Positions 18,443 to 20,663 of a DNA stretch of 31,343 bases are shown piece after piece. Under the pieces are notes generated by a model that saw only the letters and a program-made list of their open reading frames with translations, was not told the origin of the DNA and made no database searches. Origin of the DNA: a virus (Duplodnaviria > Heunggongvirae > Uroviricota > Caudoviricetes). The stretch lies in the IMG/VR virus record IMGVR_UViG_2526164609_000021. One strand, given 5' to 3'. Numbering within the stretch: the first letter of the stretch is position 1; every line of letters begins with the position of its first letter. Both the position numbers and the translations under genes were made by a program.

Positions 18443-18482
18443 ATTTCTTTCCGGTTCAGTAAAAAACGGGGGCATACTGCCC

Positions 18483-19908
18483 TAATGCCAGTCAGTTAAG
18501 CAACTGACTGGCTCTTTTTCGGGGCTGTGGGGTATTTCCAGGGCCTCTCCTTTACCACTCTCGGGAAGGCCCTTCCCCTTCTCGTCGGTAATTTCACAAG
18601 TTGTCCCATACTTGCAAGATCGCGCATCAGCTCCGGTATACGTCCCGGTGAAGCGCCCTGCAATGTCATCAGCATTCTCATCACCATTCCGCATGATTCT
18701 GAGAAACTCAGTTGATTCGGCCAGTAACCTTTCAGATGTTCCGCCATTTTAATCATCTGATATCTCACCAGATTATAAGCCAGTAAGACACCCCACAGCT
18801 CTTGCTCCACAAGCTCCGGCTTTTTACTTCTCAGCGTCAGCCTGCTCAGTTGCATCGTCTGTTTTATCTCCCTGTATCCCAGTTCAATTTCCCAGCGATG
18901 ACTGTACAGATCCGCCATTTCTCCTCCGGGGAAGCGCATGGCGTCCGTCATCGACGTCAGCAGATGGCAGACTTTTCCTTTGCGCGTCACGGTCAGCAGG
19001 CGGGCTGTCACTTCATTTCCCAGTCCCGGCCACTTTTTTCGTGCCTGCGGGCTGGTTTTCAGCTTCACCAGATGATCGCCTTTACCCAGTTTTCTGAGCT
19101 CTTCATATTGTGCTCCCTTTCTGAGAGGTATCATCCAGTGGCGGTGTTCTCCCGCCAGGCTCCAGGCATTTAACAGTCCCAGTGAGTAATAACCTTTATC
19201 CATTAACGTCAGAGTGTTATCGCCGGTTTGTTCTATAAGTTGCTCAGCAAGCTCATTTTCGCTGTTCTTCATCGTGCCGAAGGCTGCAGCCGTCAGCAGA
19301 TGGCTGGTCAGTTCCATCTGGCAGACCATTTTGACCTGCGGGTAGAGCGCCGGGTTCCCGGCATGTGTCTGGCGGGGGAAGGCTGCATCGTTCTCTGGTG
19401 TATCCGGTGTGCGCCAGAACACACCATCGATGGCCAGCAGGGTCAGGCCGCACCAGTGCGGATGCGGCGTGGCGTTATGCCAGAGCTGCGCTGTTTTCGT
19501 GAACACGCGGCGGACAGCCTCACTTCCCAGGCGCTGGCGGGCCTGAATAACGGCACTGGGGGCAACGAAGGGGCGATTGCCCGGCAGCATGATGTCCAGG
19601 CGATTCACAATCTGGTGAAGAGGTTCTTTACGCTCAAGCGCCATGCCAACAATACACCAGACCATCATTTCGAGGGGAAGACGGCGCTTGCGTAGCGTTA
19701 CAGTACCTGATTCGGCAAGGCAACGAGAGATGAGTTCGGGGTCGAGGTAATCCCCCAGAGAAGTCAGTGGGTTACGCAGAGAATCGTAACGGGATACCAG
19801 ATCAAGAGCCTGTCCAATGTGCATAAAAAAATCCGGAAACAAGTGAGCGTTTCCGGATTCTTACACAGCCACTGGATCGGTCAACTGATCCTTAACTGAT
19901 CGGCATTA
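18483..19908 (-). mobile_element. IS4: IS4 (1426 bp), flanks do not match (no target duplication)
   Basis: Imperfect 18-bp terminal inverted repeats taatgccagtcagttaag (18483..18500) and cttaactgatcggcatta (19891..19908); flanks gggcatactgccc and ctgactggaaccc differ. Confidence 0.9.
18496..19824 (-). CDS. insG: IS4 transposase
   Basis: From [59 protein letters not shown]... to ...[13 protein letters not shown]; matches the IS4 transposase over its length. Confidence 0.95.
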
Positions 19909-20663
19909 CTGACTGGAACCCCTCTTTATATTTGCACTTTTCCGCTGAACGATCGCGTCCGGCGGTGGAGCTGCTTGCCAGAGTGCCGCTGGAAAATGTC
20001 GAATATGTCGCCGATCTTGGCTGTGGCCCAGGTAACAGCACCGCCCTTCTACAACAACGTTGGCCTGCGGCCAGGATAACAGGCATCGACTCGTCTCCGG
20101 CGATGATTGCTGAAGCGCGCAGTGCTTTGCCAGACTGCCAGTTCGTGGAAGCAGACATCCGCAACTGGCAACCGGTACAGGCACTCGATCTGATTTTTGC
20201 TAATGCCTCACTGCAATGGCTGCCTGACCACTACGAATTGTTTCCTCACTTGGTTTCTTTACTTAATCCGCAGGGCGTGCTGGCAGTACAGATGCCAGAT
20301 AACTGGCTGGAGCCGACCCATGTGCTCATGCGCGAAGTTGCCTGGGAACAAAACTACCCGGATCGCGGGCGTGAGCCGTTGGCTGGCGTTCATGCTTACT
20401 ACGATATTTTGAGCGAAGCCGGATGTGAGGTCGATATCTGGCGAACCACCTACTATCACCAGATGCCGTCGCACCAGGCGATTATCGATTGGGTGACCGC
20501 CACTGGATTACGTCCGTGGTTACAGGATCTGACCGAGAGCGAACAGCAGCTTTTTCTTAAGCGCTACCATCAGATGCTGGAAGAGCAGTATCCACTGCAA
20601 GAGAACGGACAGATACTGCTGGCATTTCCGCGTCTTTTTATTGTTGCCCGGCGTATGGAGTAA
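19909..20663 (+). pseudogene. tam: Trans-aconitate 2-methyltransferase, 5' end removed at the IS4 junction
   Basis: Frame reads (T)[52 protein letters not shown]... straight from the IS4 terminus; the native ATG and upstream region are absent; SAM-binding motif DLGCGPG present. Confidence 0.85.

Follow-up and report, generated by a model that had tools for sequence, protein, structure and literature searches.

Recombination between copies of an insertion sequence (IS) and deletions adjacent to it are recognised causes of IS copies that carry no target-site duplication (Ngan et al., mBio 2024, PMC11708052). A survey of 44 genomes found all Shigella to be without a complete lsr operon, the operon for AI-2 uptake (PMC3595036). 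Here we describe a complete IS4 copy without a duplication, located in a stretch of 31,343 nucleotides recorded as a virus of the Caudoviricetes (IMG/VR record IMGVR_UViG_2526164609_000021; the whole stretch is referred to as the window). The IS4 stands between a lambdoid prophage remnant that carries ipaH and the gene tam, which has lost its start. Judged by its sequence, it is not a simple insertion but links two separate IS4 target sites.

Results

The flanks of the IS4 copy

The element occupies positions 18483–19908 (1426 bp, transposase on the minus strand), and the junction reads ...AAAAAACGG GGGCATACTGCCC–IS4–CTGACTGGAACC CCTCTTT. No direct repeat of 11–13 bp was found across the two flanks at offsets of up to 7 nt; the 13-nt flanks GGGCATACTGCCC (left) and CTGACTGGAACCC (right) share 5 positions, which is the best match (5/13). 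The first-pass annotation had held that the flanks differ and that this is no simple insertion, unless an 11–13 bp repeat lay hidden behind alignment gaps. The flanks do differ, and a gapped local alignment of the two returned 4 nt only. For comparison we used 13 distinct IS4 copies from E. coli and Shigella loci (L001, L036, L057–L068); sampling by way of the transposase sequence led to an E. coli genome and not to S. dysenteriae, and contributed to the target consensus only. All 13 carry perfect duplications of 11–13 bp, and the missing duplication in the window is therefore meaningful.

Each flank matches a locus of its own right up to the IS end: the left flank the spacer between the phage genes E and FI, to position 18482, and the right flank tam, from position 19909. 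A target consensus was derived empirically from the 13 duplication-flanked insertions. Their common pattern consists of an A-run, three to four nucleotides of any kind, the 11–13 bp duplication, another three to four nucleotides and a T-run. Several of these 13 targets are terminator-like hairpins. The left flank of the window IS4 holds the left half of such a target (18461–18482), with an A-run at 18461–18466, the triplet CGG and the 13 nt GGGCATACTGCCC up to the IS4 end. The geometry of the right flank, with 12 nt, CCTC and TTT following the IS4, agrees with the same pattern. Because each flank shows the half-site signature of true targets, both joints must be products of IS4 strand transfer, each at a well-suited target but in two different places. 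A simple insertion whose duplication had decayed by mutation was considered and rejected, as the flanks match at no more than 5 of 13 positions and come from two unrelated loci; even taken together with an assembly artefact (see below) it is given practically no chance.

The element itself is IS4 by its length, its inverted repeats, its single Nterm_IS4/DDE reading frame and its near-identity to catalogued copies. The terminal inverted repeats are 18 bp long and imperfect: TAATGCCAGTCAGTTAAG at the end of the transposase C-terminus (18483–18500) is complementary at 16 of 18 positions to CTTAACTGATCGGCATTA at the end of the N-terminus (19891–19908). The transposase reading frame is intact (18496–19842, minus strand, 448 aa, TTG start) and contains the domains PF13006 (Nterm_IS4, 3e-33) and PF01609 (DDE_Tnp_1, 8e-32), both above the curated cut-offs. 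A comparison with the copy in E. coli FDAARGOS_1249 (L001) resulted in 1418 identical positions out of 1426 (99.4%), and copies in E. coli genomes annotated as 'IS4-like element IS4 family transposase' are ~99% identical.

The tam flank

The gene tam (trans-aconitate 2-methyltransferase; 19909–20663, plus strand) picks up again at 19909 with the second and third base of codon 2 and reads GAC TGG AAC... (DWNPSLYL) from 19911. It thus begins with codon 3 at the IS4 end, just as had been read from the sequence at first. The ATGT, the ribosome-binding site and the promoter are lost; otherwise the gene is intact, with 250 codons from 19911. The neighbouring gene yneE (bestrophin family; 20667–21581, minus strand) is placed relative to tam as in E. 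coli.

In E. coli FDAARGOS_1249 (NZ_CP069459.1) an IS4 stands in tam at an identical nucleotide position and orientation, there as a plain insertion. Its sequence reads ...AAAAAAATGT CTGACTGGAACC–IS4–CTGACTGGAACC CCTCTTT, with a 12-bp duplication and with lsrCDBFG directly upstream. The right copy of this duplication in the window (19909–19920, CTGACTGGAACC, followed by CCTC TTT) is identical to both copies in FDAARGOS_1249. The two loci thus agree in the IS4, its orientation, its nucleotide position and the right flank CTGACTGGAACC, and they differ in the left flank, where FDAARGOS_1249 has the other copy of the duplication, with ATGT and lsrG before it. Since that strain has the same insertion with both duplication copies, the right flank in the window is one untouched half of a conventional tam::IS4 insertion, and an exchange took place on the left side only. 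Common descent of the two insertions was considered as well. It is unsupported, as the tam–uxaB backbone of FDAARGOS_1249 is 97.6% identical to the window, compared with 98.6% for the best E. coli match, and ranks below many other E. coli. Probably the same preferred target was hit twice, independently.

The NCBI annotation gives tam as a full-length gene of 252 aa, both here and in FDAARGOS_1249, starting from an ATT inside the IS4 end (ATT ACT GAC...). An in-frame TAA (19893–19895) precedes this start, there is no Shine-Dalgarno sequence (19896–19935), and a canonical in-frame start is not reached until the TTG at 19932. From these features, tam more likely represents a pseudogene or a gene with very poor translation. 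The absence of lsr from the locus, also part of the first-pass annotation, was borne out: neither blastn nor tblastx detected lsr DNA in the window.

The prophage flank

The lambdoid prophage remnant comprises positions 755–18482 on the minus strand, with ipaH (1071–2822) on the plus strand. The genes next to the IS4 encode the DNA-packaging protein FI (18059–18442, minus strand, 127 aa; PF14000, 1e-27) and an FII-like head-tail joining protein (17679–18047, minus strand, 122 aa; PF05354), both named Shigella dysenteriae by their sources. The start codon of FI is at 18442, and exactly 40 bp of phage DNA separate it from the IS4 (18443–18482, minus strand). They consist of the FI leader and the terminator hairpin of the major capsid gene, E, minus 2 nt of its 5' arm. 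The left flank matches relatives (L044, L013 and L012) to position 18482, where these continue with CCGGTTAT...TTA, the stop codon of E. The IS4 end accordingly falls 2 nt into the hairpin's 5' arm and lies roughly a dozen nucleotides beyond the stop codon of E.

The closest relative of the window FI is found on a Logan contig (L044, 86% amino-acid identity) with the gene order Nu1-A-W-portal-C-D-E-FI-FII. The prophages of enteroinvasive E. coli (EIEC) RMDEC332 and of E. coli M19 have the same head order, with E, D, C, portal, W, A and Nu1 directly beyond the spacer. The intact relatives (EIEC RMDEC332 at yecD, E. coli M19 and Logan SRR33768546_21) share with the window the order FI-FII-Z-U-V-G-T-H-M-L-K-I-J-lom-stf(-ipaH) as well as an E–FI spacer whose terminator hairpin matches the retained 40 bp. 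They differ in that they keep the whole head module Nu1-A-W-B-C-D-E, whereas the phage DNA of the window breaks off 2 nt inside the hairpin.

Lambda-type head genes (Nu1, A, W, B, C, D and E) were not found in the window by blastn or tblastx, including searches against the head modules of two relatives, and the gene lists of the junction-carrying loci contain no terminase, portal or capsid Pfam families. A look for the missing capsid gene by way of its protein family led to very large clusters in which no name was specific to Shigella. FI and FII, with which the lambda head cluster ends, are retained in the remnant. The earlier statement that the prophage begins about 40 bp upstream of FI with no terminase, portal or capsid genes therefore describes the locus well; the broader wording that it lacks all head genes is correct for Nu1 to E and goes too far for FI and FII.

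Leftward on the minus strand the remnant contains FI, FII, Z, U, V, G/T, H, M, L, K, I, J, lom and the tail fibre gene (stf), and the tail module is thus present in lambda order from FI through J plus the fibre. It has decayed in several places: an IS1 interrupts J, gene U is truncated, and both I and the fibre gene have been shortened. Gene U (~16700–17105) encodes 74 aa, compared with 133 aa in strain L027. Three IS1 copies were observed in the window (1–754, 6707–~7474 and ~25687–26441). The copy in J is a diverged variant, 91% identical to the other two, and because it is flanked by a 9-bp duplication (CACACTGCG) it represents a simple insertion. Beside ipaH, another IS1 stands in place of the DinI/att side of the prophage; in the complete genomes its neighbour is ydfI. 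Some sister strains (L004, L036 and L038) contain a second IS4 inside FII, ~0.6 kb from the junction, with the 13-bp duplication CACCGGATTTCCG (not CACACTGCGG). In some sister strains IS66 elements were observed in place of V–H.

Distribution of the junction

Identical junction flanks are present in at least 11 complete NCBI genomes (CP026805, CP026807, CP026815, CP026825, CP026832, CP026834, CP026840, CP026842, CP034935, CP045784 and CP176669) as well as in draft assemblies. An assembly artefact joining two IS4 copies was rejected because these complete genomes, at least 11 in number, were assembled independently and all show the same junction. The window is 100% identical over ~18 kb to contig AKNG01000040 of GCA_000268105.1. 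The FI–IS4 joint is absent from 5426 complete E. coli genomes; the 20-nt left-flank matches seen in many E. coli genomes were traced to an IS4 at the glgP site, whose A-rich target arm is similar. The junction is fixed in a S. dysenteriae lineage. Among the carriers are strains whose J is uninterrupted by IS1 and others that have the additional, duplication-flanked IS4 in FII; the junction is therefore older than both of these events.

One scaffold (PUGV01000524.1 in GCA_002967595.1; L006/L033) connects the FI-side IS4 end, across runs of N and a fragment of an IS3-family element, to an IS4 at the ycbB/mukB site. This linkage is probably a scaffolding artefact and not a further rearrangement.

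Gene order around the junction

Gene names in the neighbourhood were assigned from Pfam families and gene order. The junction genomes contain, in this order, cybB/gapC', an IS, mgtT, an IS1, dcp-ydfG-ydfH-ydfZ-ydfI, an IS1 and the ipaH prophage remnant, followed by the IS4, tam-yneE-uxaB', a P2-like remnant and ihfA-pheT-pheS-...-thrS. The segment tam-yneE-uxaB' forms an islet of 2.65 kb between two prophage remnants. At its far side a chimeric reading frame (21778–22686, minus strand) consists of the first ~44 codons (1–44) of a gene for a P2-type tail tube and, fused to them, a C-terminal portion of uxaB. This breakpoint (22563/22564) is located 2.65 kb from the IS4, shows 2 nt of microhomology and involves no IS. 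E. coli ETEC4088 has the same P2-like prophage at ihfA, and the remnant in the window lineage likewise runs on to ihfA-pheTS. Within the P2-like remnant, a reading frame of 637 aa (26264–28177) has no Pfam match. Its exact protein sequence is recorded only in GCA_000268105.1, the sister strains having 537–624 aa, and the corresponding cargo gene of ETEC4088 is annotated as an 'MFS transporter' of 1039 aa.

On the K-12 map tam lies at ~1.60 Mb, ydfI at ~1.63 Mb and ihfA at ~1.79 Mb, and the ydfI block is ~27 kb downstream of tam. In the junction genomes the ydfI block lies upstream of tam in the same orientation. All blocks are in the K-12 orientation but in permuted order. Because the ydfI block, the prophage and tam are permuted, a single deletion of a K-12-like layout is insufficient. 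Several events are needed. At least four breakpoints lie within ~45 kb: the IS at gapC/mgtT, the IS1 at ydfI/ipaH, the IS4 joint at FI/tam and the IS-free uxaB/P2-tube fusion. The K-12 interval between the prophage-side markers and ihfA holds essential genes such as tyrS and ribE. As these are essential in K-12, they must survive elsewhere in the genome, and at least some of the junctions must therefore be translocation or inversion breakpoints.

Discussion

Origin of the joint

We favour, with moderate confidence, an origin of the hybrid joint by recombination between two IS4 copies residing at two independent target sites. An IS4 would have inserted conventionally into codons 2–5 of tam, duplicating CTGACTGGAACC. 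Another IS4 strand-transfer event would have hit the terminator hairpin between E and FI of the lambdoid ipaH prophage. Homologous recombination between the two copies, which we infer as the most likely step, would then have left one IS4 with the prophage flank on one side and the tam flank on the other. As a result FI and the tail genes would have been parted from the head, lysis and regulatory genes, while tam would have lost its link to the start codon, the promoter and the lsr operon. The junction is in this sense a rearrangement breakpoint with associated gene loss, and not one clean deletion. We prefer recombination between two copies because the lineage has many IS4 copies, including, in some strains, the one ~0.6 kb away in FII. 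Several points weigh against it. Searches for an IS4 with the reciprocal flanks (lsrG-ATGTCTGACTGGAACC–IS4 or IS4–GGCATACTGCCC-capsid gene) gave no matches in genome_contigs and metagenome_contigs, collections in which the junction itself, used as a control, also gave none, since they do not cover the lineage. The intermediate, an IS4 with its own duplication in the E–FI terminator, was not found in the searched collections, which lack the lineage. An IS1 bounds the other end of the prophage and obscures its original integration site. Finally, a one-step adjacent deletion gives a sequence identical to that produced by two-copy recombination.

In such a one-step, transposase-mediated event the tam IS4 keeps its tam-side end while its other end attacks the E–FI terminator on the same or a sister chromosome, as an adjacent deletion or an intramolecular transposition, and the intervening DNA is removed or displaced without a second resident IS4. 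The A-run, the 3 nt and the 13 nt of the left flank have the geometry of IS4 strand transfer exactly as this event predicts, the tam-side flank would remain untouched, and adjacent deletions are documented as a source of duplication-less IS copies (PMC11708052). We nevertheless regard this origin as possible but doubtful. Its product is the same in sequence as that of two-copy recombination, and adjacent deletions should be rarer because IS4-family elements transpose by cut-and-paste: such an element would need an unusual synapsis of its ends, a rarer event than recombination in IS4-rich genomes. A strain of the lineage already has a second IS4 in FII, ~0.6 kb away. The event also requires that the prophage was located upstream of lsr with its head genes facing lsr, which the present ydfI-IS1-ipaH linkage does not suggest. 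The first-pass annotation had called the locus a deletion junction, and a single contiguous deletion from the prophage to tam, with the head genes, the rest of the prophage and the lsr operon lost in one step, would account for the lack of both head genes and lsr in the window. It is also in line with the general lack of a full lsr operon in Shigella (PMC3595036) and with the homologous prophage of S. flexneri, which lost its lysis and head genes in place, beside an IS110-family element. However, the flanking blocks (ydfI block, prophage, tam) are in the K-12 orientation but in reversed order, the other side of the 2.65-kb islet tam-yneE-uxaB' is an IS-free fusion to the P2 remnant at ihfA, and the essential genes of the K-12 interval (tyrS, ribE) must persist elsewhere. 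We consider this origin unlikely. Of the term deletion junction, what holds is a rearranged joint with unrelated flanks; a single deletion is not established and is probably too simple, given the unaltered half-insertion on the tam side and the permuted gene order. Topologically, that order (ydfI block, prophage, IS4, tam) corresponds to a joint of the excised-circle or tandem-duplication type, and it could record an IS4-mediated segmental translocation instead of a loss.

Significance of the junction

The junction is a routine scar of the IS-driven genome scrambling long known in Shigella and involves no new mechanism or element. IS-driven genome reduction and ipaH prophage remnants in Shigella were reportedly described by Yang et al. 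in Nucleic Acids Research in 2005 (cited in PMC2266710). The main value of the locus lies in annotation and in reconstructing the history of Shigella genomes. The hybrid IS4 marks a chromosomal breakpoint fixed in a S. dysenteriae lineage and is usable as a lineage marker. For annotation, tam is a likely pseudogene despite its full-length call, and the prophage is defective. The prophage would be unable to form capsids, and ipaH would thus be immobilised; tam would be left without its normal translation signals, and the AI-2 uptake genes would be gone from the locus. For the loss of the lsr operon, already known in Shigella, the junction thereby provides one concrete route, and in view of the 44-genome survey (PMC3595036) such a loss is plausible in this lineage.

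Comparison with related systems

A homologue of the prophage is present in genomes that appear to be S. flexneri, at aspS-yecD/yecE (L052–L056). It has an identical IpaH sequence and the same tail-gene order, its lysis and head genes are likewise missing, and an IS ends upstream of FI and the capsid-gene terminator, at a distance of a few tens of nucleotides (~8100–9600 of each locus). In contrast to the window, this IS belongs to the IS110 family and not to IS4, the loss took place in place with Q retained, the chromosomal neighbours are different, and the FI allele differs (57% amino-acid identity). Two Shigella lineages thus appear to have lost the head module independently, at the same inter-module boundary and via different IS elements. 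The shared boundary may reflect chance, a target preference for terminator hairpins, or selection. The E–FI terminator, with its A-run, hairpin and T-rich tail, conforms to the pattern of IS4 targets. Should the coincidence be more than chance, inter-module intrinsic terminators would be structural hot spots for several IS families; alternatively, selection would keep the block of FI, tail genes and ipaH and shed the packaging genes, locking the effector gene in the chromosome. That the boundary between the capsid gene and FI is a preferred site of prophage head loss and, separately, that the gene order records an IS4-mediated segmental translocation seems to us a distinctly improbable account of the locus.

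The closest described cases are the IS copies without duplications reported by Ngan et al. (mBio 2024, PMC11708052). As in those cases, a complete IS is located between unrelated flanks from different loci, and adjoining DNA has been lost. The present locus differs from them in two respects: the ancestral state of one flank, tam::IS4 with its duplication, is visible in another strain, and the gene order shows that more than one event took place.

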